Shown in pieces: positions 34,599 to 47,469 of a stretch of 64,000 nt of DNA (positions are counted from its first letter, which is position 1; each line of letters begins with the position of its first letter). The stretch is from the NCBI GenBank assembly GCA_963848965.1, contig CAWKFG010000001.1:128001-192000 (forward strand), in the 5' to 3' direction. Source of the stretch: an uncultured bacterium. Lineage in GTDB: Bacteria > Babelota > Babeliae > Babelales > Babelaceae. The notes under the pieces are model-generated. The model worked only from the letters and a program-made list of their open reading frames with translations. It made no database searches and had not been told where the DNA came from. Made by a program: the position numbers and the translations under genes.

Positions 34599-35639
34599 AT
34601 GAATCTTTTATGGCAGTTGGGAGTATTAGTATCACTAATGCTAGGGAGTCAACTCTTTGGAATGCAAGAAGAATTTAGGGAAGTGAGTCGTACTTATGGT
34701 CAATATATAGCAGAATTTGTCTCCCGGTTAACTCATGAGCAATATAAGCAGCTTGTCTTGCATCCTTATTTTTTTGATAATCCTTGTGAATTACTTGAAA
34801 GTACTTTTGTACAAGAGCTTACAGAAGAACAAAAGATGCTTTTTTTAAAAGTTGCTAGAGAATATAATTCAGATACGTGGTCTGATTTTAAGGAACTAGT
34901 ACTTAAAAATCTGTTTGCTTTTAGTGCATTAACTCCAGAAGCTTTAAAAGATCTTCAAATAAATCAAATAAGCGTTGAGCAATTTGATGCTCCTTGGAAC
35001 AAGAGAATACAAGAATTTATAAAGAATGATAAAAAAATAAAAGAATTTACATGGAACTTATTAGAAAGATCGTGGTGTCCCATTGATTCTCAAGATTTGT
35101 GCTCTTCAACACTATCACTATTTAAAGAAGATGAAATGGTAGAAGAGATACAAACGTCATTTCAAAACAAGCTTTCTCCTGGATGGTGGCAGTGGACATG
35201 GCAAAAGTGTAGTGCAGTAAAAGAATGGTGGTACAGTGACCAATCCGAGCTTAGAGATCAACAGTGGCTTATAAAGTTTGGCTCTCTGTTTTCTAAATTA
35301 AAACGAGAACAGCGTTGGTTTCTCATTGATATTATACAGATTTTGCAAGGATATAAAAATATTCTTCTTGATGATGCCTATAATAGTAAACTAATAACAG
35401 TTGCTCTTAGCATGTTTTCAAATCAAAGAGACTATCTTCGTGCTGTATGTTACTGGTATCTTGAGGCTTTTGTATTTCAGCGTCTTCTCGAGTATGGTTA
35501 TTGTAAACCTCATGAGCGGGAACTCTTTGCAAAGTCTTTTAAAGATAAGTTTGATGAGCATATAATGCATCTTAATGAGCAAGAACAAGCGAGAGCACAT
35601 AATATTAGAAGAGTTTGTAAAATTGTTTTGCTCTATTAA
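34599..35639 (+). CDS. Exported hypothetical protein
   Basis: GGAGG RBS; signal peptide ending LFG-MQEE; no recognisable domain. Confidence 0.75.
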   Translation: MNLLWQLGVLVSLMLGSQLFGMQEEFREVSRTYGQYIAEFVSRLTHEQYKQLVLHPYFFDNPCELLESTFVQELTEEQKMLFLKVAREYNSDTWSDFKELVLKNLFAFSALTPEALKDLQINQISVEQFDAPWNKRIQEFIKNDKKIKEFTWNLLERSWCPIDSQDLCSSTLSLFKEDEMVEEIQTSFQNKLSPGWWQWTWQKCSAVKEWWYSDQSELRDQQWLIKFGSLFSKLKREQRWFLIDIIQILQGYKNILLDDAYNSKLITVALSMFSNQRDYLRAVCYWYLEAFVFQRLLEYGYCKPHERELFAKSFKDKFDEHIMHLNEQEQARAHNIRRVCKIVLLY

Positions 35640-35735
35640 GCTGTACTTTAACCTGCTGAATCTTTTTCTTTCATAACTATCATTATTTTTTTGCGTTTTT
35701 CCTCAGAGAGCTTGATAATTGGAATTATTATATTT

Positions 35736-35973
35736 ATGAAATCATCACGATTAACGTCAAAATACCAAGCAACAATTCTCTAAAAAAATAAGAGAATTGC
35801 TTAATCTTAAGGCAGGCGATACCATAGTTTTTGACATAATAGATAAAGGTACTGTAGTAATGCAAAAAGCTAAGAAATTTGATAAAGAGTACTTAGAAAT
35901 GGTATACAAAATGCTCAATGAATGGGATTCAAAAGAGGATGATGAAGCGTATGAACACCTTCAAAATCTTTAA
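35736..35973 (+). pseudogene. AbrB/MazE-family antitoxin, frameshifted
   Basis: MKSSRLTSKYQATI / KKIRELLNLKAGDTIVF...EWDSKEDDEAYEHL; frameshift near 35779. Confidence 0.8.
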
Positions 35974-36145
35974 TGTGCCTATAACAAATCTTATAAGTTG
36001 TGGTCTTCAGAAGCCTCCAGTGATCCGTTTAAAACTATTTACCATTGATCATAGATTAGTTATTGATAAGATAGGCACGTTAGCATATGAAGACCAAGAC
36101 AAAGTAAAAGAACATATGGCTTTAGTATTTGCAGCTTTGCTTTGA
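35972..36145 (+). pseudogene. C-terminal remnant of PemK/MazF-family toxin
   Basis: VPITNLISCGLQKPPVIRLKLFTIDHRLVIDKIGTL directly after the antitoxin; N-terminal half missing. Confidence 0.7.
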
Positions 36146-36778
36146 GAAAACTTTCTTAAAAAGTTCCAAGTCTTCGCTGCTAAAGAGTATAAAATAAATA
36201 TGAGTTAATGTTGTAGCTTGTGTCTTAGCAAAATCTATAATTGTCTTAAGAGCACTAGTAGCGGCTCGTTCTTTTGGAAAAGCGTATATAGCAGAACTTA
36301 TAAAAGGAAAAGCTATACTTTGAGCTTTTTTCTCAGTAGCTAATTCTAAGCTGTGTAAATATGCTTCTTTTAGCAATTTGTCTTGCTCTTTACTATCTTT
36401 AATAATGCGGCAATCGGGGCCAACAGCATGAATTATATGCGTAATACCATATGTTTGTAAGTTAAAGCTTGGAGTAATACAAGCAGTTCCTGTAGGACAA
36501 CGAATACCATTCTTCTGAGCAGGGATACTGTTACATGCTTCTTGTAAAGCATCTTTTCCGGCTGCTTTGAAAATAGCACCACATACTCCACTGCCTGCTT
36601 GCAGCTCTTTATTTGCTGCATTAACAATAATATCTACCTGTTGCTTGGTTATATCTCCTTGCATACAGGTTATAGTAACGTTGTTAATTTTATATGAAAA
36701 TGGTGTACTATCTGCGCTACTGTTTTTGCATACAGTAACAGTGAGTACAGTCAATAAGCACAAAACAAATTTTTTCAT
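36122..36778 (-). CDS. Macro domain protein (ADP-ribose binding/hydrolase) with signal peptide
   Basis: QGDITKQQVDIIVNAAN, GSGVCGAIFKAAG, IIHAVGP, SIAFPFISSAIY. Confidence 0.92.
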   Translation of the reverse strand: MKKFVLCLLTVLTVTVCKNSSADSTPFSYKINNVTITCMQGDITKQQVDIIVNAANKELQAGSGVCGAIFKAAGKDALQEACNSIPAQKNGIRCPTGTACITPSFNLQTYGITHIIHAVGPDCRIIKDSKEQDKLLKEAYLHSLELATEKKAQSIAFPFISSAIYAFPKERAATSALKTIIDFAKTQATTLTHIYFILFSSEDLELFKKVFSKQSCKY

Positions 36779-36938
36779 AATTTTCCTTGAGTATGGCCGT
36801 ATTTGATTTTGTCTTTAGTGTACCACTCTAGAAAGATGATTCAACTGCTGCGGTAAAAGATTACTATGCTGTTATAGAGAGCTTTCTACTGTACAGTATA
36901 TGCTTTATCAACAATAAGTACCAAACGTTGAGAATCTA

Positions 36939-38003
36939 CTATATATGAGTGTTTACAGTATTTGCAGACTCTTTAAATGGCATATCATAGAAATCTTCTC
37001 CATAAGCAAAGGGCTGGAAATAGATACAAGGTTTTAGACCAGTACGAGCAAAAAACGGGGTAAGAAGTTCCTTTAAGTTCTCTTTAAATGTTTGAAAAAA
37101 CTCTTTTTCTTTAGGTACTAAATAATAGGTAAATTCCTTATTAGGTAGTAAGAAGACGATAGTACATTCTTTTTGTTTTTGCTTAACAGCATAACATGCT
37201 ATCTCATATATATAATAAATGGCTTCTAGATACTGTAGAAAAGGAAAAATTTGTGTGTGATCGAAATCCAAAAGATTTTTGCTTTGAGTCAAAGGACAAT
37301 AATCTAAACAAGAGGGTGTATAACCTATGGTGCGTAAAGAAAAGCGAGCATAGAGGTCACGCGGCTCTGTACGTATGAGCTGGGAGCTTGCTTTTTTAGT
37401 TACTTTACCAAAGTTACATGTATAGAGCCAAGAAAAGAATTTGTTAGCTTGTAAGATCTGATATGAAGTACTTAAAGGAAGAGAAAGCAAAGTTGTAGAA
37501 ACGTCGCTTAAAAGAGGACATTCGTCTTTCTTGAGTACTTTTATGGAGGATTCTTGAATTACTTTTTTATAATCAGGACATGCACGCAACTTTTGATCTT
37601 TGGTTGAAAAATAGCGCCATGCTGTAAGATCGGTAAGCCAAAAAGTGGCCTGAAATGGTAGTAATTGAGTGAAAATAGTATCTTGATACCAGCGGGTACC
37701 GCTCGATGACAGGTTTCCAAAGTGGTCAGTAAACCAAAGAACGATATGAGGATTTTTTTTAGTTTTAAGAACTTCTACTACTTTTTTACTAGAAAGCTCG
37801 TGCTGAAATCCAAGAGTTTTGTAAAGGGCTTTTCTTTCTTCAAGTGTATATTGGCGAAGGCTTTTAAGAAGAGTAAGTGGCATCTTTTTAATGGCTTGAT
37901 CGTAGTGTATTGTTACTTCAAAAGAAGATGCTTTTTGTGTGAGTAAAAAGGTTCCTATTGCTAGAGTTATAAGTGTTATGAACATAAGTAAGAATTTATA
38001 CAT
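36939..38003 (-). CDS. Hypothetical exported/anchored protein, paralog of 38048..39142
   Basis: Shared motifs WFTxxFG, ATFWLTDLxAW, LQYLExxYY, PNKEFTYYLVP, YFQPFAY. Confidence 0.8.
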   Translation of the reverse strand: MYKFLLMFITLITLAIGTFLLTQKASSFEVTIHYDQAIKKMPLTLLKSLRQYTLEERKALYKTLGFQHELSSKKVVEVLKTKKNPHIVLWFTDHFGNLSSSGTRWYQDTIFTQLLPFQATFWLTDLTAWRYFSTKDQKLRACPDYKKVIQESSIKVLKKDECPLLSDVSTTLLSLPLSTSYQILQANKFFSWLYTCNFGKVTKKASSQLIRTEPRDLYARFSLRTIGYTPSCLDYCPLTQSKNLLDFDHTQIFPFLQYLEAIYYIYEIACYAVKQKQKECTIVFLLPNKEFTYYLVPKEKEFFQTFKENLKELLTPFFARTGLKPCIYFQPFAYGEDFYDMPFKESANTVNTHI

Positions 38004-38047
38004 GATAATCCTTTAAAGGGGGAACACCTTACAGTGTTCCCTTTGTA

Positions 38048-39142
38048 TTATGGCAGATATTTCTCTAACTTTGATTTGTTACAAGGGTTACCTACAGCTC
38101 TATACGGTGATGCAAAGAGTGTATTATCTTGTGGTGTATAATAAGCAAATGGTTGAAAATAGACTGAGATACGAAACCCTGGCGGTAATGAAAATGTAGA
38201 GATAACAGTTTCTAAGTCTTGCTTAAACGTGCTCAAGAGTGACTGTTCCTGTGGTACAAGATAATAAGTAAACTCTTTATTTGGTATAAAAAAGACAATA
38301 GAACACTCTTTTGCAGACGGATCATTAGTTAGCGTATCTTTAATAATGTTAGAGGCATAGTAGAGGCCCTCAAGGTATTGAAGAAGACGAAAGATGAGCG
38401 TAAAGTCAGCTGTAAGAAATGTTTGCCGAGCAAGTTTAGTACTTACTATGTCTAATAAAGGGGATGTATAGCCTAGATTTTGTAAAGAACAAGGAGCTCT
38501 TCCTTCGCGTCGTTGCGTTTTACATAAAAGATCGGCCTTATCAAGGATAAGCTCAAACAAAGAAAATTCTTCGGTCTTATTGGTAAGAGCTTTGAAAAAG
38601 TCCTGTGAAAAAAGAGGGCGATACCGTTTTTTAGTGCATGTAACTTTTGCTAAAACTTCTGAACGCTTTGTAGTCAGAGGACATTCTTCTTGCTTTAATT
38701 GCTCGTTATTGTCTAATTTTGCAATAAGTGCACTATAGTTTTGTGATAGTTGCTTTTTATCAATTGCAAGAAAACACCATGCTCGTAGATCGGTGAGCCA
38801 AAAGGTGGCTTGAGGAATTTTATTAAAAAGATTGGTGCTATACCAGAGTGCAGTAGAAGGCATGATACTACCAAAGTAGTTAGTAAACCATATGACAACC
38901 TGAGGATTGTTAAGAGCAGCTATAGTTGCAACTGCTTTTTCTAGTGGAAAGAGCTCTTTAAAGAGGGCAAACATTTGTGCTTGTGTCTCCTCATTTGCAG
39001 TCCGAGCACTTCTCAATTCTTCTAAATAAGGTTTAAGTTTATTAATACAAGGATCGTAAGCGACCGTTAAGGAACTTGGTTGTTCCATTGCTTGCATGAA
39101 TCCCCCTGTAAAGGATAGAAAGAGTAAAAGTAGCGTTTTCAT
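38048..39142 (-). CDS. Hypothetical exported protein, paralog of 36939..38003
   Basis: Signal peptide ending MQA-MEQP; same shared motifs. Confidence 0.8.
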   Translation of the reverse strand: MKTLLLLFLSFTGGFMQAMEQPSSLTVAYDPCINKLKPYLEELRSARTANEETQAQMFALFKELFPLEKAVATIAALNNPQVVIWFTNYFGSIMPSTALWYSTNLFNKIPQATFWLTDLRAWCFLAIDKKQLSQNYSALIAKLDNNEQLKQEECPLTTKRSEVLAKVTCTKKRYRPLFSQDFFKALTNKTEEFSLFELILDKADLLCKTQRREGRAPCSLQNLGYTSPLLDIVSTKLARQTFLTADFTLIFRLLQYLEGLYYASNIIKDTLTNDPSAKECSIVFFIPNKEFTYYLVPQEQSLLSTFKQDLETVISTFSLPPGFRISVYFQPFAYYTPQDNTLFASPYRAVGNPCNKSKLEKYLP

Positions 39143-39156
39143 GATTTTTCTTTCGT

Positions 39157-39859
39157 TTAAAAATATGTTAAAAATTGTTGTAATTCGTTTTGCTCAGGGA
39201 GCTCTTGAATAGTTTGAGTATTCCATGTTCCAATGAGTGTTCCGTCCTGTAAAAGAGCAATTTCTTGAGCAGCATTCTTTACAAAATCCATATCTTGGCT
39301 CGAAAAGAGCACAGTAATTCCCTGTGTGCTTAATGTCTTAAGGAGCTCTGTAAGAAGTGCACTATTTTCAGGATCTAGTGCAGACGTAGGTTCATCCATA
39401 CACAGTATTTGTGGTTCTAAAACTAATGCTCGAGCAAGTGCAACTCGTTGTTGCTGTCCTCCTGACAATTGGGTAGGGTATTTATCCTTGTGAGATTGGA
39501 TACCAAAGTAGGTAAGCATAGAAAGCGCTTTCTCATATGCTTGGGCTTTTGTGAGTTTTTTAGTAACTACAAGAGACTGCATGCAATTTTCAAGCGCTGT
39601 CAGGTGTGGAAACAGGTTATAGTGCTGGAATACAAGCCCTATAGTTTGGGCTTTCTGTTGACAAGAAAGAGTTTTTAGTTCTGTTTGGTTAAAGGTAATA
39701 GAACCAGTATATGAACGTTTCAATTGAGTTATGCATTCTAAGCAGAGTTGTCTTACCCGCGCCACTTTTTCCAATGAGTGCGGTAATGCTTCCAGGCATA
39801 AGAGTCAGTGAAAGTTCTTTTAAAATAGTTTTATAAGAAAGATTTTGTACGATTAACAT
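39157..39859 (-). CDS. Polar amino acid ABC transporter ATPase, frameshifted near 39737
   Basis: Walker A GKSGAGKTT in one frame; LSGGQQQRVALARAL and MDEPTSALDPE in the next; one extra base between KTTLLR and CITQL. Confidence 0.88.
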
Positions 39860-40490
39860 TATATTTCCTTTCAAGAAGTTGACCAAATGCTGAAACTGCA
39901 CAGGTGAGTACAAGGTATATACCGGCAATGCTTAATGAGACACCAAGTGGGTTGAATGAACGATACATAATGTTCATGCTCATCTTAGTAAGCTCGAGTG
40001 TTCCTATGCTTGCAAGGATTGAAGTACTTTTCATAACCATAACGTATTCGCTTGTAAGTGCAGGAAGAGCAGCGCGAAACATTTGTGGTACTATGATATA
40101 GCGCAGTTGTTGCATGTTTGTGTATCCTAAAGCGTGAGCTGCTTGCCATTGTCCACGGGCAATGCTATTAAGTGTTCCTCGTATAATTTCAGAGACGTGT
40201 GCAGCTGAACAGAGGCCTAGAGTGATAACACCTGCAGTAAAAGGAGAGAATGTGATACTTGTAAGCTGTGGAAGTACAAAATAGACAAGCATAAGCTGAG
40301 CATACAGAGGTATTCCTCGTAAAAGCAGGGTTAGGATACCAAGCGGTACAGCAAGGGCTGCTGTGCGCAGCCAAGAGCAGCGCACAGTACCTATACCTAT
40401 TCCTATAACAAGACTTATTGCTGTTGAAACTATCCAAAGTTTACAGGTGGTGATAGTTCCTTGTACTAACAAGGGAATCCAAGCTGTCAT
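39831..40490 (-). CDS. Polar amino acid ABC transporter permease
   Basis: RGIPLYAQL, SEIIRG, GQWQAAHALG, IIVPQMFR. Confidence 0.93.
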   Translation of the reverse strand: MTAWIPLLVQGTITTCKLWIVSTAISLVIGIGIGTVRCSWLRTAALAVPLGILTLLLRGIPLYAQLMLVYFVLPQLTSITFSPFTAGVITLGLCSAAHVSEIIRGTLNSIARGQWQAAHALGYTNMQQLRYIIVPQMFRAALPALTSEYVMVMKSTSILASIGTLELTKMSMNIMYRSFNPLGVSLSIAGIYLVLTCAVSAFGQLLERKYNVNRTKSFL

Positions 40491-41275
40491 TGTACCTCCT
40501 TAGAAAACCATTGCTTCTCTTTTTGTGCTAAGAAGCCCTCTTTTTTAAGATCGGCTATGATAGCTTCTATTTTAGAGATAAGTGCGGTATTCTCCTTGTT
40601 TATTCCTATCCCGCAGCCAAGGATTTTATACTTCTCACTAAGTGGTACAACTAGTGAAACAAGTTCTGGATACTTCTTTTTCAAACTTTGATAGAGTGCA
40701 GGTTCAAGTAATGTAGCAAGTGCTTTGCCATACTGAATCTCGAGGATAGATCCTAGAGGATCTACACGCTTAATTTCAAAGCCTTTAAAGCTTTCAAGAA
40801 TTGGCTCTTGGCTAGAACCAGGCTCAACGCATACAATAGCGCCAGGAATAGAAGAAAGATCTTCAAGCTTTTGTACTCCTGTAGGAATTGTTTTCCAGAA
40901 TATAAGCGGTAAAGAGGTAATAGGCTCTCCTTGGTAAGGAACCATGGCCATTTTGGCAAGCCGTTCAGAGGTGATATCAAGACCGGTCATAATAAAGTCT
41001 ACGGAGCCTTGTTGCAGTGCCTGAATAAGATAGGCGGTATCCATATCTTTTATGAGGAGCTTTTTATTGAGCCTTCGTGCAATCTCTTGAGCAACATCAA
41101 TATCGAAGCCTTCATAATTGCCTAGCTCATTCATACTTACATAGGGTGGCCATCCACTCATGGTGCCCATTACAATAGTTTTGCTTTTATCAACTTCAGC
41201 AGAGCTTTTATACAGTTGTAATCCAATAAACGTACACAGTGGTACTAAAGCTAGAAAATATATGTTTTTAAACAT
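40487..41275 (-). CDS. Polar amino acid ABC transporter substrate-binding protein (family 3)
   Basis: WPPY, EGFDIDVAQEIARRL, GLDITSER. Confidence 0.92.
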   Translation of the reverse strand: MFKNIYFLALVPLCTFIGLQLYKSSAEVDKSKTIVMGTMSGWPPYVSMNELGNYEGFDIDVAQEIARRLNKKLLIKDMDTAYLIQALQQGSVDFIMTGLDITSERLAKMAMVPYQGEPITSLPLIFWKTIPTGVQKLEDLSSIPGAIVCVEPGSSQEPILESFKGFEIKRVDPLGSILEIQYGKALATLLEPALYQSLKKKYPELVSLVVPLSEKYKILGCGIGINKENTALISKIEAIIADLKKEGFLAQKEKQWFSKEVQ

Positions 41276-41429
41276 AGTTATCCTTTAATAAATTCAAATA
41301 GAAATTAATTTTAATAACAAATAAGTTAGGGAAAATAATTATTTTTGTACAGTACTCTTTAAAACAAAGAGATGCTTTGCTTTAACAAATACTTACAAAT
41401 GATGTATAAAATAATGGGAATGCCAAAGA

Positions 41430-41522
41430 TTAATGGCAATGATGATAGTGGTGATGAAAAGAAGAAAGAGAAGAAGGAGAGAGAATAAAAGATTGTTCTA
41501 AAAGATACTTAATAGGTATCAT
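41430..41522 (-). promoter_or_regulatory. Putative His-rich leader peptide (30 aa)
   Basis: MIPIKYLLEQSFILSPSSLSSFHHHYHHCH*; GAAAGGG RBS; 30-nt pyrimidine tract at 41456-41485. Confidence 0.8.
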
Positions 41523-41562
41523 AACATGCCCTTTCTTTGTTTAAATATAATTCTAACTCTTT

Positions 41563-41591
41563 AGTATAAGCATGTTTTATGCAAAATGCAA
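41563..41591 (-). promoter_or_regulatory. Sigma70-type promoter upstream of the His leader
   Basis: TTGCAT-N17-TATACT on the minus strand. Confidence 0.6.
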
Positions 41592-41830
41592 GAAGAAATT
41601 AAATCTATAAGAATGCATGATCTAATGAGAGGTCAGGACAAAGCTCTTTGAGAAAATCCTCGCAAAGTGACAACGCAATTGTCATTTTGAGACTCATTAT
41701 GACATTTTCAATGTCATTTTGCGAGTACAAGCAAGAAAAACTGCTTTATAGGCTTTGGACACCTCTAATGAGCTTAAATACCCAAGAAGCTGATTCTTCA
41801 TAAGTATATACCTATAATGAACAATAAGGG

Positions 41831-42685
41831 TTAGCTGTTGGAAAGAATGCCACTTTTAATAAGTTCTATGCGCAAAGCATCATAATCGTCACCATTAATA
41901 AGTAAGGCTTTCATACCACATGCTTTCGCACCATCAGCATTTACTTTTTGATCATCAATAAGAATACAATCATTCGGGTTCAAGCGAAGCGTATAAATAA
42001 CATATTCAAAAGCATTTTTATAAGGCTTAATACGATGTATATCTCCTGAAATAACCACATGATCAAAGTATTTAAATACTCGTGTATTCCTTTTATAGAA
42101 AGATTTAAAAGAAAGATGATCCCAATTAGAAAAAGCAACTAAACGGTGCTTTCTTCTTCCATTCCTATCACGTACGGCAGCGCATTCTTTGAGAAGTCTC
42201 ACTCCTTCTTCTACAGGATAGACATTACGAGCTAAAACATGAGGATTAAACATTGTTTGAATAGTTCTTGTAACAAGCTCTTTTTCTCGATCGCTTTGAA
42301 AAAAGTTCTGTTGGGCAAGAAGAGCAATCTGCTTTTCTGCAAGTTTTATAATTTCAGGACCAGTTTTTGTTCCTGCCTGCCATTCACACATAATAGGTGG
42401 TAATGGTGGTCCATCTGCAGAACCTGCAGGATTAAAGTTCTTTTCTTTTGGGCCGGGTTCATAGTCTGAAGGAACATGAGTAAGTACTTCATAGAGCAGC
42501 TTTTCTATATTAGGATTCTTCCAATCCATTAAGAGATAAGAAATAAAGCGTTGAAGACCAATCTCTTTGGCAACACCAAGTTTATCTGGTTGAAAAAGAA
42601 TGCCACCGAAATCCCAAATAATAACGTCAGCTAAAGATATATACGAATACACTAAAAATGTGAGTAAAAATATTCTTTTGAGCAT
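41831..42685 (-). CDS. HAD-superfamily hydrolase with signal peptide
   Basis: IIWDFGGIL, FSNW, VISGDIHRIKP, ILIDDQKVN. Confidence 0.85.
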   Translation of the reverse strand: MLKRIFLLTFLVYSYISLADVIIWDFGGILFQPDKLGVAKEIGLQRFISYLLMDWKNPNIEKLLYEVLTHVPSDYEPGPKEKNFNPAGSADGPPLPPIMCEWQAGTKTGPEIIKLAEKQIALLAQQNFFQSDREKELVTRTIQTMFNPHVLARNVYPVEEGVRLLKECAAVRDRNGRRKHRLVAFSNWDHLSFKSFYKRNTRVFKYFDHVVISGDIHRIKPYKNAFEYVIYTLRLNPNDCILIDDQKVNADGAKACGMKALLINGDDYDALRIELIKSGILSNS

Positions 42686-42771
42686 AGTTTCCCCCTTTGC
42701 TAAGCGCGCACTTTTCTAGTATAGCGCAGGAGAATTACTTAAAGTAAGATTTATGAAAATTCTTCTAGTAG

Positions 42772-42800
42772 ATAAGCCCTATACGAGCTATAGGGCTTAT
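42772..42800. terminator. Hairpin, probable terminator
   Basis: ATAAGCCCTATA-cgagc-TATAGGGCTTAT just past the stop of the 42813 gene. Confidence 0.6.
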
Positions 42801-42812
42801 TATGAACGGGAT

Positions 42813-43421
42813 TTACTCTAACAAACGAATTACTGCATCATACTCGTCGTGCTCAAAGCTTGGGGCTTTCTCTTTTTCTTTGCGTGCAATATCTAAAGCT
42901 GTTTCACCGAACTTATTCTTAATTGTTTTATCAGTGCCACGTTTAAGAAGAATATTAACAGTTCCTTTACGGCCATATCCAGCAGCGGTCATTAAAGCAG
43001 TTCCACCAACTTTATTTTGTAAATTAGGTTGAGCGCCGTTATCTAACAGTAAAGAGATAACATCATCTTTTTCCCAAAGGCCAGAGGCGAGCATTAAAGG
43101 AGTGCTTCCTTGAGAATCGCGGATATTTACATCTGCTCCATGCTTTAAGAGAGAACGAATGATAGAAAGATATTCTTGATTCACCTCTTCACCAAGTGTG
43201 TTGAAATTATAAGCAAGAAAATGAAGAATATGAACACCTGGCGGATTATCCCATTTTTCATTAGGATTAGCTCCTGCTTCAAGAAGACGCTCAACTTTTT
43301 TGACATCTGGAAGACGTACAGCACGTATTAATGCCTCACGCGTTGTACTTTGCGCCTTTTCCATACTATAGAGGCTACAGAACGTACTTGCTACCGCAAA
43401 AAATAAAAAGATATTTTTCAT
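42813..43421 (-). CDS. Exported ankyrin repeat protein
   Basis: Start reassigned to ATG 43421 (MKNIFLFFAVASTFCSLYS-MEK); GSTPLMLA, GGTALMTAA, GETALDIA. Confidence 0.88.
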   Translation of the reverse strand: MKNIFLFFAVASTFCSLYSMEKAQSTTREALIRAVRLPDVKKVERLLEAGANPNEKWDNPPGVHILHFLAYNFNTLGEEVNQEYLSIIRSLLKHGADVNIRDSQGSTPLMLASGLWEKDDVISLLLDNGAQPNLQNKVGGTALMTAAGYGRKGTVNILLKRGTDKTIKNKFGETALDIARKEKEKAPSFEHDEYDAVIRLLE

Positions 43422-43633
43422 AATAAATTCTTTATTTATTCTAATAATATATAGTGTTTCTATTAAAGATAGCAAAAATAATGCAATAGTCAATGTTTTT
43501 GGGCTCTCTATCTTATACAGTATGGTCTGGGAGTCTTTCGATTTTTGTGATAAAGAAATTTTAAAAAATTCTTTGCGAATGTAAACCTCTCTTTGCCATA
43601 CTAAGAGAAAACAATTTTCACTGGGTAAAATAT

Positions 43634-44746
43634 ATGGAACTATTGCCAAAGATTATGAAAGCAGTGCGAGAAGGAAATAAAGAAGCACTGCGGCCTCTTT
43701 TAGAGCAAGGAGATAGTATTAACCAAGAGTGCTATGGTTCAACTCCTTTATTAGCTGCAGTAAGCTCTGGATACCAAGATGTGGTAACAGAGCTGCTTTT
43801 GCATGGTGTAGATCCTAATCGTACAGGCTTAGATTCAACGACACCTTTGGTACGAGCTGTTGCCCTGGGACACAAAAGAATGATAGATCTTTTGCTTTCT
43901 CATAAAGCTGATCCTAATGGGCATTTTAGTGGTTATGATACACCTTTATTGCGTGCTATTGCTAAAGGACATAGCGAGATAGTACATATTCTTCTCAACT
44001 ATGGAGCAGATGTCAATTATAGTATTAAGCGAGAGAGTCTTGTAGAGCCAGTTCGAGCTCCTCTCATCGTTGCTATTAAACGAATGCTTGCTTTTTCTCA
44101 AGAGTATTCAGCGGGATATAGAAATGAAGCCTTTGAAATAGTAAAGCTTCTTTTAGAGCATAATGCAAATCCTAACAGTATAGGTAATTATCGTGAATGC
44201 TTGTATGGAATTTTGCTGCGCAATGTAAAGCCCGTAGAAAAGCCACAAGAAGATAGTGACTTTCAAGAAGTACCTCTTTCTCTTGCAGCACGAGCAGGAG
44301 ATAAAGAGCTTACAAATGTTCTCTTGCAGTATGGAGCATCTATTGAAGGCGGTGGTAAATTGAGCGAAATTCCTTTACATACAGCCGTTGAAGGAGAGAA
44401 GCCAGAAATGGTACAAGAGCTTATCCGGTTTGGTGCATTTATTAATAGTCAAGACTACTATGGTCAAACAGCGGTACATATTGCTGCTTATAATGCCACC
44501 TCATCAGACATTGCTTATGAATGCTTAAAAATTCTTTTATCTTCAGGAGCTCAAGTCAATATACTAGACTATGAGAGAAACACTCCTTTAATGTTCATCT
44601 TTGCTTATAGAGGCCCTTCTGAGAGTACTCCTCATGTTGAGCGTGTAGTAAAACTACTTTTAGAATCGGGTGCGGACATAAGTATCGTTAATATAGATGG
44701 AAGAGATGCTCGAGCATTAGCACAAATACGAGGATTTGAGTTATGA
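43634..44746 (+). CDS. Ankyrin repeat protein, no signal peptide
   Basis: GSTPLLAAV, TTPLVRAV, DTPLLRAI, IPLHTAV, GQTAVHIAA. Confidence 0.9.
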   Translation: MELLPKIMKAVREGNKEALRPLLEQGDSINQECYGSTPLLAAVSSGYQDVVTELLLHGVDPNRTGLDSTTPLVRAVALGHKRMIDLLLSHKADPNGHFSGYDTPLLRAIAKGHSEIVHILLNYGADVNYSIKRESLVEPVRAPLIVAIKRMLAFSQEYSAGYRNEAFEIVKLLLEHNANPNSIGNYRECLYGILLRNVKPVEKPQEDSDFQEVPLSLAARAGDKELTNVLLQYGASIEGGGKLSEIPLHTAVEGEKPEMVQELIRFGAFINSQDYYGQTAVHIAAYNATSSDIAYECLKILLSSGAQVNILDYERNTPLMFIFAYRGPSESTPHVERVVKLLLESGADISIVNIDGRDARALAQIRGFEL

Positions 44747-45543
44747 ACGAATTTCTTAAAGCTCTTAAAGAGCACAATGAAGAGCTTATATATGCTCTGC
44801 TTGAACAAGGAGCGGATCCTAATTGTGAGTTTGATGGAAAGGTATGTCTGAGGTATCTTATTGGTGAACCGAAACTCATACGATTACTTTTAGATTATGG
44901 AGCACAACCATGGGTAAAAGATCAGGAAGAACGATCATTGCTGGTAGAAGCTATTTATAAAGATGATATTCATACAGTAGATTATCTATTAGAGTGTGAT
45001 GCTCATTCAGTCTATGTTAATGAGCCTGATGAAGAGGGACATACACCACTTGGCTGCGCTACCTATTGTGGACAGAATGAAGATATGATACGTTACCTTG
45101 TTTTCTGCCAAGCAAATCCTAATCAATTTGATGATGCACGGCAAACATTTCCTTTTATTGCGGTAGCTTCTGGATTTAAAAAAGATATGCTAGAACTCTT
45201 TATAGAATATGGTGCAGATCCTTTTGTTGTAGATCCAAAGGGCAATACTGCGCTTATAAGTGCTATACGTCCAGGCAATGAGGAAAGCGTTGCTTTCCTG
45301 CTTAAACTTAGAATACCGGTAAATCACCAAAATAACTGTGGTGAAACTGCTTTGCATAGAGCTGCAAGAGAGGGAGCTGTATCTCTTATAAAACTTCTTT
45401 TGGACAGTGGAGCAGATATAGCTATACAAGACAATGAGGGTAATACACCGTTAATGATATTATTGGCGCAAGAGGATATAGCACCAGAAGTAAAAGAGCG
45501 GTCTGAACAACTGCTAAGACAGAGTAAAGAGAGGGTAGTATGA
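44743..45543 (+). CDS. Ankyrin repeat protein, no signal peptide
   Basis: GHTPLGCA, GNTALISA, GETALHRAA; ATGA overlap with the upstream gene. Confidence 0.9.
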   Translation: MNEFLKALKEHNEELIYALLEQGADPNCEFDGKVCLRYLIGEPKLIRLLLDYGAQPWVKDQEERSLLVEAIYKDDIHTVDYLLECDAHSVYVNEPDEEGHTPLGCATYCGQNEDMIRYLVFCQANPNQFDDARQTFPFIAVASGFKKDMLELFIEYGADPFVVDPKGNTALISAIRPGNEESVAFLLKLRIPVNHQNNCGETALHRAAREGAVSLIKLLLDSGADIAIQDNEGNTPLMILLAQEDIAPEVKERSEQLLRQSKERVV

Positions 45544-45830
45544 ATGGAGATAGAGAAAGAATTGTACGACTTATAACAGTGTTATTACCTTATGCTAAGC
45601 TCTATGTTGTTGAGTCTTATAATCTTAAAAATAATGAGATGCTGCCAACTCCTGGCATTGATCTAGCTATAGATGCGGGAGAACAGATCCCTCAAGAGCA
45701 CCTTATTCAGATTAAAAATATTCTTCAAGCACTGAGTCTTTCCCAACCAATTACTATTATTGACCTTTATTCACTTCCTGTTGAAAAGCGAGTAGATATC
45801 TTAAAAGATGCAATAGCATGGAAAAACTAA
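45540..45830 (+). CDS. Minimal nucleotidyltransferase (MNT)-like protein, degenerate
   Basis: LLPYAKLYV...GIDLAIDAG...IIDL...ILKDAIAWKN resembles MNT antitoxins, but the GS-x-DxD motif is eroded. Confidence 0.6.
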   Translation: MNGDRERIVRLITVLLPYAKLYVVESYNLKNNEMLPTPGIDLAIDAGEQIPQEHLIQIKNILQALSLSQPITIIDLYSLPVEKRVDILKDAIAWKN

Positions 45831-46012
45831 TAGACTCCTTCTTGTATTAGCCGACCAGTTGCAGAAGAAATTTTTGTTGCTACTCTAAAGAAAATTTAAC
45901 TGTTGTTCTTAAAAGGAGCGAAATGCAAGAGTATTATTTGAACAAAGTTGTCGAGATTGAGCGAGCAAAAATAGATGAATATAGTCTTCAAGGTTATTAG
46001 GTAATAAAGAGT

Positions 46013-46438
46013 TTATTCGTCAGAATACCCTTTACGGCGTAATCGCTTTTTGGCGCTATGCATCTTTTTAGTATGGAGACGTGCTATCTTGGCTGCACCG
46101 CTTGGTGCGGTTGCAAGACGCTTTTTCTGTGGCTGTAAGGCCTGTTGAATGAGTTTTATAAATTTTTCTTCTGCTTTTTTACGATTAGCGTGTTGTGTGC
46201 GCTCTGAACTTGCAGTAACTCGCAGAGTACCTTCACTGTCTATTCTTGTTTGCAGTTTTGTAAGCAAGAGGGCTTTGGTAGTATCGTCAAGGGTAGACTG
46301 TGGAATATTAAAGCTGAGTTCCACTTTTGTCTCAACTTTGTTTACATTTTGACCACCTTTGCCGCTGCTTCGTGCAAAGTGTACAGTAGTTTCTTGTAAA
46401 AGAGCTTGATAATCTAATTTTTTCATGATTTTATGCAC
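46013..46438 (-). CDS. arfB: Alternative ribosome rescue factor B
   Basis: ARSSGKGGQNVNKVETKV, ERTQHANR, basic C-terminal tail. Confidence 0.93.
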   Translation of the reverse strand: MHKIMKKLDYQALLQETTVHFARSSGKGGQNVNKVETKVELSFNIPQSTLDDTTKALLLTKLQTRIDSEGTLRVTASSERTQHANRKKAEEKFIKLIQQALQPQKKRLATAPSGAAKIARLHTKKMHSAKKRLRRKGYSDE

Positions 46439-46502
46439 AATAAATATATAGATATTGTGCTTAGTATAGCAATCGAAGATGCTTATCTCAACTGTTTATA
46501 AC

Positions 46503-46530
46503 AAAAAAGGACGCCTTTACTGGCGTCCTT
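46503..46530 (-). terminator. Intrinsic terminator
   Basis: AAGGACGCC-tttact-GGCGTCCTT with a T run on the minus strand. Confidence 0.8.
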
Positions 46531-46542
46531 AGTACTTGTATC

Positions 46543-47469
46543 TTAATCTCTATCATCTTCTATAATTGTAAATTCTTCATCTATATCATCTAAGTCTTGT
46601 AGGCTTCTAACGTTGACTTGCGCTCTATGTAATCTAAGAACATCGCGAGCAGCTCGTACTGTAGCTGGTACAAGAAGGCCTTTTTCTCTATAAGAAGTTT
46701 CGAGCTCGTTAATAGAGTCAAGTGCTGTCTGCCGTCTTGAATTGGTAGCATTTACATCTGCACCACACTCTATGAGGGTATTCATAAGCAGATAGACATC
46801 TCCTTCAGACTGTGCATAATCAACTATAGCAGCTAAAGGAATTCTTCCAAATTCATCTTCCCCATGCATATTTGCACCTTGATCTACCAAGAATGAGATA
46901 AGGGAAGCATCGTTTTTTTCTAGAGCTTTAAAAAGAAGATCAGTGAGTATATCTTGTTTGTCCTCTACTTTACCTTCTGCTTCTAATGTAGGGCGATAAG
47001 TGAGAAGAATAATAAAGTTTGTTTTATCTTCATTTTCTGCTGCAGCTTTATAGAGTGCTTCGTCATAATTAGTATAAGCACCGTGTGCAAGGAGTCTTTC
47101 AAGAACTTCTGGAGTTGCTCGTGTAGCAGCTGCTTCTAAGATGCTTCCATTCCAGTATTTATTGCCTCCTCTATCTACATCAGCACCATTTTCAAGAAGA
47201 AATTCAATGAGCTCATGATTGTTTGCATATACTGCAGCAAAAAGAGGGGTAAGATTAGCATCTTCGTAATTCCATTCTGCTCCTTTTTCTTCATATACAT
47301 TTGCTTCATTAACATCTGCTCCTGTTTCAACAAGAACTTGCGCAAAATCGATATCGTTTTCTTGTACTGCTCTATAAAGATCTGTTTTGGTAGCTAATGC
47401 AGCAGGACTCATGCTCAAAAGAAGAAAAAGTGGAAATAGTGTTTTTTTGTACATGAAATTTCCTTTCAT
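46543..47469 (-). CDS. Exported ankyrin repeat protein
   Basis: Signal peptide ending ALA; LTPLFAAV, GADVN repeats; acidic tail. Confidence 0.88.
   Translation of the reverse strand: MKGNFMYKKTLFPLFLLLSMSPAALATKTDLYRAVQENDIDFAQVLVETGADVNEANVYEEKGAEWNYEDANLTPLFAAVYANNHELIEFLLENGADVDRGGNKYWNGSILEAAATRATPEVLERLLAHGAYTNYDEALYKAAAENEDKTNFIILLTYRPTLEAEGKVEDKQDILTDLLFKALEKNDASLISFLVDQGANMHGEDEFGRIPLAAIVDYAQSEGDVYLLMNTLIECGADVNATNSRRQTALDSINELETSYREKGLLVPATVRAARDVLRLHRAQVNVRSLQDLDDIDEEFTIIEDDRD

Follow-up and report, generated by a model that had tools for sequence, protein, structure and literature searches.

A conserved His-codon leader upstream of an amino-acid ABC importer operon in Dependentiae and Chlamydiota

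The leader ORF and the importer operon

The window analyzed here is a 64,000-nt stretch (C1:128001-192000) of a Dependentiae/Babeliales MAG, the assembly of which comprises 1.73 Mb in 5 contigs and is 88.7% complete. On its minus strand lies a small ORF, MIPIKYLLEQSFILSPSSLSSFHHHYHHCH*, of 30 codons plus stop (41430..41522 (-), ATG...TAA). As the first-pass annotation had described, this ORF is extremely rich in histidine towards its end: reading the sequence gives the codon run CAT CAC CAC TAT CAT CAT TGC CAT (41433..41456 (-)), which places His at codons 23-25, 27, 28, and 30, or six of the eight terminal codons. We propose this run as a ribosome stall site. The ribosome-binding site noted at first pass is also present, as a Shine-Dalgarno-like AAAGGG (41529..41534 (-)) positioned 6 nt 5′ of the leader ATG, though the match to the Shine-Dalgarno sequence is loose.

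Further upstream, the hexamers TTGCAT (41591..41586) and TATACT (41568..41563) are separated by a 17-nt spacer (41563..41591 (-)), with 40 nt between the end of TATACT and the leader ATG. The second hexamer matches the -10 consensus at 5/6 positions. The first matches the -35 consensus TTGACA at 3/6 only, and for this reason the site is not among the calls of a promoter consensus scan. The promoter claimed in the earlier annotation thus retains its hexamers, spacing, and distance to the leader, whereas its -35 element is poor and goes unlisted by the scan; we regard it as a plausible promoter, judged from its letters.

The His tail sets this ORF apart within its genome. Across all six frames of the 1,726,235 bases, it is the sole ATG-initiated ORF of 10-100 aa with at least five His among its last eight codons. 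Nothing convincing emerged from this genome among other leader-like ORFs, whether with runs of other amino acids or with weaker His runs. A cmscan of 35000..47000 against Rfam (E up to 1) gave no match to His_leader (RF00514). Its sole, weak match, to sroD (sub-threshold, E 0.27), lies elsewhere and coincides with a canonical intrinsic terminator at 46507-46530 (-), which has a 9-bp stem with 6 G-C pairs followed by TTTTGTTATA; the sroD match is therefore probably just this terminator.

A 154-nt spacer separates the leader from the ATG (41275) of a gene for a family-3 substrate-binding protein (40487..41275 (-), SBP_bac_3 PF00497, E 1.2e-25), just as had been annotated. The protein has 262 aa and not a single His, and its gene is preceded by an AAGGA Shine-Dalgarno sequence (41285..41281 (-)). 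It is followed by a gene for an ABC permease of 219 aa (39831..40490 (-), BPD_transp_1 PF00528) and by an ABC ATPase gene with a broken frame (39157..39859 (-), ABC_tran PF00005, break near 39740/39741). The combination of SBP_bac_3, BPD_transp_1, and ABC_tran in one operon is the make-up of a polar amino-acid ABC importer (PAAT type), and the operon order is kept in all 17 loci inspected. An ORF of 364 aa with a signal-peptide-like N terminus (38048-39142 (-)) starts 14 nt past the ATPase stop and, given this short distance, is possibly co-transcribed with the transporter. Neither this ORF nor another of 354 aa (36939-38003 (-)) has a Pfam or NCBIfam match.

We also searched this 88.7%-complete genome for the histidine biosynthesis families HisD, HisA/F, and IGPD and found no match to any of them; the same search scored in 14/14 control genomes. 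Because the genome is incomplete, the absence of his biosynthesis genes is not proven. The missing matches are consistent with a need for histidine import.

Leaders and HisR genes at orthologous loci

Orthologous loci were gathered from 40 relatives and from one genome per species. A tblastn threshold of E ≤ 1e-30 retained 78 of 100 loci, which fell to 70 upon removal of 6 duplicates and 2 loci without upstream DNA. We called a His leader where the last eight codons of a same-strand ORF (8-90 aa) included four or more His and the ORF ended at most 320 nt before the binding-protein gene. By this rule, 35 of the 70 non-redundant loci carry a His leader, in both Dependentiae and Chlamydiota, though these are related genomes and not independent samples. 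The same His-tail rule applied to both strands of the remaining 669,306 nt of the 70 loci returned 2 ORFs. The strict leader is thus missing from half of the orthologous loci; weaker His tails occur in four further loci, and L010 has an internal HHHH. The closest binding proteins come from MAGs labelled Candidatus Dependentiae/Babeliales or "uncultured bacterium", while orthologues at 36-47% identity are found in MAGs labelled Parachlamydiaceae, Rhabdochlamydiaceae, and other Chlamydiota.

A second, independent set of loci was obtained from metagenomes. Scanning with a 6-sequence alignment yielded 28 loci, none above 57% identity; scanning with a single binding protein as query yielded no loci. 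Among the 15 of these loci with enough upstream DNA, nine have a His leader.

The leaders also carry signals for translation initiation. A strict Shine-Dalgarno core with an in-frame ATG is found for 25 of the 35 leaders, and for 31 when a looser core is allowed. Across the leader stretches, a strict Shine-Dalgarno sequence precedes 26 of 58 in-frame ATGs versus 1 of 23 out-of-frame ATGs. Leader lengths range from 20 to 47 aa and the N-terminal parts are not conserved; a Cys near the leader end is kept in the closest clade. Conservation of the His codons in orthologous leaders was one of the checks put forward in the first-pass annotation, and the His run recurs in both locus sets. That the ORF arose by chance in a 5′ UTR rich in pyrimidines is excluded by the uniqueness of the leader within its genome and by its conservation at orthologous loci.

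At 17 of the 70 loci, all without a leader, a gene of the YerC/HisR family encoding ~100 aa lies directly upstream of the binding-protein gene instead. Its product scores 67 bits on TIGR02531 (YerC/YecD, cut-off 42) and stays under the cut-off on TrpR. Transporter operons headed by HisR occur in many Dependentiae (L004, L006, L012, and 14 other loci, as well as L022). The last of these, from the window's own clade, has both devices in series, the HisR gene preceding the His leader and the His leader preceding the binding-protein gene (L022:1810-2501). Upstream of the HisR gene, a palindrome of the GTGCTATCATGATAGCAC type overlaps a -10-like hexamer in most of the 18 HisR loci.

The main text of Ashniev et al. 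2022 (PMC9413887) equates YerC with HisR, a histidine-dependent repressor whose predicted targets in many Firmicutes are genes of his biosynthesis and of His transporters, and describes a Ruminococcus gnavus HisR that binds its operator only with L-histidine. HisR is a TrpR-family protein, and the 17 loci resemble this system in having a family gene where the leader would stand and, mostly, a palindromic operator. The Dependentiae members are putative histidine binders, and the genome studied here differs in having no HisR homologue or remnant (best tblastn E 1.7). Together, these loci offer a natural three-way comparison in which a single operon is headed by the leader, by the repressor gene, or by the two together.

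From these comparisons, we consider it likely that the leader serves as a sensor of charged tRNA-His, controlling a histidine-importing operon in a bacterium unable to make histidine. A ribosome on the leader would have to read six His codons among the last eight. If histidine were scarce, it would stall at these codons and expression of the binding protein, permease, and ATPase would go up; if histidine were plentiful, it would finish and leave, and operon expression would be attenuated. The operon would, most likely, import histidine. That ribosomes stall here, which way the control works, and what the importer carries are all points that we infer from sequence comparison. The first-pass annotation had read the leader in the same way, as a His sensor that points to histidine as the likely substrate. 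Its reading is supported by leader conservation, the exchange with HisR, and the lack of his-gene matches, and also by the Arg-leader/pocket split and the His depletion of the binding proteins described below.

This type of switch is already known. The his operon attenuator of Escherichia coli and Salmonella, hisL (RF00514), is likewise a short ORF with a late His run just upstream of a histidine-related operon, with ribosome stalling as the presumed sensor of charged tRNA-His. In contrast to hisL, however, the leader described here would control an importer rather than biosynthesis, has no Rfam match, occurs in the phyla Dependentiae and Chlamydiota, has no definable antiterminator/terminator pair, and carries a conserved pyrimidine tract before its His codons. 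Also comparable are the His-leader attenuators that the main text of Ashniev et al. 2022 (PMC9413887) predicts for Firmicutes, ahead of his operons, of the hisXYZ transporter, or of both. These resemble our leaders in having 3-5 His codons, in being used without HisR and T-box, and in belonging to a mosaic of interchanging devices, but they differ in transporter family, in lineage, and in having a defined terminator/antiterminator, of which none is definable here. The main text of that study has 0 occurrences of Chlamydia or Dependentiae.

"Histidine transporters" appear in PMC3766115 in a list of genes regulated by RNA. A full-text literature search, with subscription journals largely outside its reach, returned no leader-peptide attenuator for Dependentiae and no His leader for Chlamydiota. 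What makes the present case stand out is that it spans two phyla of intracellular bacteria, that HisR can take its place, and that a His/Arg codon swap tracks the residues at putative pocket positions. Very few regulators have been described from Dependentiae and environmental Chlamydiota, groups that are largely uncultured and rely on host-derived amino acids.

RNA structure and candidate read-outs

RNA between the leader and the binding-protein gene folds more stably in the window than shuffled sequence does (z -3.1). Two hairpins are predicted there. The first, a small hairpin of the form UGCCA-N8-UGGCA (41421..41438 (-), 5 bp, -6.9 kcal/mol, z -3.6, 0/200 shuffles as stable), holds the leader stop codon in its loop. 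The conserved Cys codon is part of this hairpin, which would explain its conservation. Similar stop-enclosing hairpins are found at L003, L011, L021, and L022 and, with other sequences, at L042 and L054, two loci whose leaders end in Arg rather than His codons.

The second is a long, A/U-rich, imperfect hairpin (41344..41399 (-), 56 nt, ~23 pairs, -19 kcal/mol, z -5.4, 0/200 shuffles as stable), followed by AAAAUAAUUAUUUU. It is not a canonical terminator, because no U tract directly follows the stem. Two consensus scans call no intrinsic terminator in the window's spacer, the canonical one nearby being that at 46530..46507. Across the family, by comparison, 18 of 35 spacers contain a hairpin with a perfect stem and a U-rich tail, versus 5.7 ± 2.3 (maximum 11) in 100 dinucleotide shuffles. 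This enrichment makes premature termination plausible as the event that the leader would control.

Textbook attenuation further involves an antiterminator, and we looked for one in several ways. A duplex search between the upstream region and the terminator arms gave a mean z of -0.2, no better than shuffles, and hence no general antiterminator; L070, L005, L056, and L043 alone stood out. When the ribosome was modelled as a constraint, stalled at the His codons, the terminator probability dropped in only two of 18 loci (L005 and L056). In the window itself, the one alternative pairing seen by eye is a 5-bp CUUUG:CAAAG. RNAalifold, applied to three chlamydial subgroups of 4 sequences each, predicted for one subgroup a conserved hairpin of 13 pairs, 1 of them compensatory, and a weak consensus for the other two (-4.7 and -1.6 kcal/mol).

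Two further candidates gained no support. Masking of the binding-protein ribosome-binding site was modelled as accessibility over 35 loci, which is the same with the ribosome stalled at the His codons (0.43) as with it at the stop (0.43), against 0.41 in the free RNA. Pairing of the U run after the stop with the downstream Shine-Dalgarno sequence appeared in one RNAalifold subgroup, with negligible energy.

Another conserved feature of these RNAs lies just 5′ of the codon run. In the window, codons 11-22 (41457..41492 (-)) are S/F/L/P codons that form a pyrimidine-rich, G-poor tract, and the 42 nt 5′ of the last eight codons (41457..41498) are 86% pyrimidine and 2.4% G. In 25 of 35 loci, the equivalent 42 nt belong to the most pyrimidine-rich 5% of windows of their own locus. 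Between -60 and the leader stop (position 0), the 35 loci have 5-11% G and 26-38% C, compared with 20% and 21% overall, and the first 15 nt past the stop have 6% G. The tract precedes His and Arg runs alike and is conserved as composition, not as peptide sequence. We found no purine-rich partner downstream of it in the 35 loci. This conserved tract is unexplained by the textbook attenuation model, and it hints at a read-out possibly unlike the textbook hairpin switch.

One such read-out would depend on Rho. In the tnaC-tnaA system of E. coli, attenuation is Rho-dependent and tnaC senses free tryptophan via its nascent peptide. By analogy, a ribosome held near the end of our leader could cover a C-rich site next to it at which Rho would otherwise load, although the His leader would respond to codon supply rather than to tryptophan sensed by a nascent peptide. 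The C/U-rich, G-poor tract over the 3′ half of the leader and its stop would then be the loading site. Stalled and queued ribosomes would cover the tract, prevent Rho from loading, and let transcription continue; when translation ended normally, the bare tract would admit Rho, which would terminate transcription at downstream pause-like hairpin/U elements.

Both parts expected of such a tna-like arrangement are found, the C-rich, G-poor tract at the stop as base composition and Rho as a gene present in this genome, and together they make this read-out a serious alternative. The recurrence of the tract across the family, the missing purine-rich partner, and the lack of both a general antiterminator and a canonical terminator in the window spacer agree with it. 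On the other hand, the evidence for Rho loading is compositional and the His codons are themselves G-free, the enriched hairpin-plus-U elements also fit intrinsic termination, and the comparison with tna is one of analogy. A Rho-dependent read-out therefore strikes us as possible but clearly not the most probable. We rank premature termination at hairpin/U-rich elements first, a tna-like Rho-dependent mechanism acting through the C/U-rich tract second, and control of translation or mRNA stability third, with protection of the mRNA by stalled ribosomes as a serious alternative.

Integrity and substrate of the importer

Likely control of a histidine importer by the leader presupposes a working importer, and the ATPase gene raises doubt on this point. 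Its Walker A half (..GKSGAGKTTLL) and the remainder (ECITQL..) are in different frames, parted near 39740 by what looks like one extra base. In relatives, the ATPase is a single ORF of 215-259 aa, the sole exception among those examined being L010, with an ORF of 168 aa. Given this frameshift, the operon may be inactive in this genome, and the leader may be a relic of a decaying operon that controls no working importer. The leader, binding protein, and permease are all intact, however, and the single extra base may be an artefact, the genome having been assembled from an uncultured organism; the break is either a real frameshift (pseudogene) or an assembly error. We find decay rather doubtful as an account of this locus.

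A different concern is that the leader senses histidine while the importer is of a general basic amino-acid or arginine type, in which case histidine would be the wrong substrate or too narrow a one. The closest solved structures to the binding protein are of chlamydial ArtJ, an arginine binder (PDB 3del, 3qax, and 3n26; E 2e-37 to 2e-34), which belongs to the same type of operon with one binding protein, one permease, and one ATPase. None of the NCBIfam equivalogs HisJ, ArgT, and ArtJ reached its cut-off (cut-offs 256-522 bits; best scores 46.7-87.3 bits), and the best NCBIfam match, also below cut-off, is the Lys/Arg/Orn subfamily. Moreover, passages of the preprint 10.1101/350942 document promiscuity among basic amino-acid binders for GsArtJ and StLAO.

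Residues at the putative pocket speak against this broader or arginine-specific assignment. We mapped the pocket positions through our own alignment to LAO, for which the same preprint (10.1101/350942) describes roles of the equivalent residues Y14, F52, and L117. In the numbering of this genome's protein, the window's binding protein differs from ArtJ at six of these putative positions: N39 is replaced by M, Y42 by W, F80 by T, D81 by A, S100 by D, and Q151 by E.

The ArtJ-like residues go instead with a second kind of leader. Six loci form a separate clade (SH-aLRT 94 in a quick IQ-TREE analysis), and three of them carry similarly built leaders with Arg codons at the end (..SSSRRRARRI, ..FRRSFRRRR, and ..IRRPRR). 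The metagenome set contributes two more distinct Arg-run leaders (in all, L009, L042, L054, L110=L111, and L112). Arg-run leaders are found only before this ArtJ-like sister clade, which occurs in Dependentiae and Chlamydiota records alike. Binding proteins with Arg leaders have N/Q/C39, F80, and D/E81, and chlamydial ArtJ has N39, F80, and D81. In contrast, binding proteins with a His leader or HisR have M/T/A39, T/M/S80, and A/P/T/V81, together with W97, or T/S97 with D100. Leader codon identity thus appears to covary with the residues at the putative pocket positions. This association is suggestive rather than statistical, because it represents essentially one evolutionary split in a quick tree.

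The composition of the binding proteins themselves points the same way. Of those encoded behind His leaders, 26 of 35 have no His at all, the window's protein among them, and the group averages 0.23% His. Behind HisR genes, three of 15 are His-free (0.72% His), and in the Arg clade none of six is (1.32% His). All ORFs of 200-400 aa in this genome, for comparison, have 2.57% His, with 14 of 982 His-free. Such depletion also speaks for induction under starvation, since a protein made in the presence of uncharged tRNA-His should avoid His codons. With the near absence of His behind His leaders, the replacement of the leader by HisR within the same clade, and the departures from the ArtJ pocket, we consider a broader or arginine-type substrate unlikely. 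A fourth family-3 binding-protein paralogue of this genome, located outside the window (342 aa, C1:630585-631358 (-)), is also His-free; it directly follows another gene and has no leader ORF.

If the leader is, as we favor, a His sensor, it assigns histidine as a testable substrate to an ABC importer whose specificity family searches do not narrow down. The Arg leaders of the sister clade would yield a second assignment, arginine, suggesting that leader codons can be used to annotate orphan amino-acid importers. In a bolder proposal, which we hold to be improbable as a whole, a modular leader programmable by its codons travels with the ArtJ-family importer between Dependentiae and Chlamydiota, both of them phyla of intracellular bacteria associated with amoebae, and is re-programmed between Arg and His together with the pocket, while stalled and queued ribosomes mask a Rho loading tract without any classical antiterminator. 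The order of such a module would be a pyrimidine-rich S/F/L tract, a terminal codon run, and a stop that is either enclosed by a small hairpin or followed by a U run.

HHHxHHCH resembles metal-binding motifs and the near-terminal Cys is kept in the closest clade, but a functional His/Cys-rich micropeptide, such as a metal binder, is scarcely credible given N-terminal parts that are unconserved in leaders of such varied length, the presence of an Arg run in the sister clade, and of a HisR gene at other loci, where the His run would be, and a Cys codon accounted for by the RNA hairpin.

Several other features of the genome drew our attention. Very Arg/Pro/Gly-rich short ORFs at C4 ~17300 and C5 ~121800, outside the window, suggest stretches that are G+C-rich relative to the genome (37% G+C) and that may be foreign or mis-binned DNA. 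Within the window, a macro-domain protein is encoded at 36122-36778 (-) and three adjacent ankyrin-repeat proteins at 42813-45543. Proteins of both kinds are typical of bacteria living inside eukaryotic cells.
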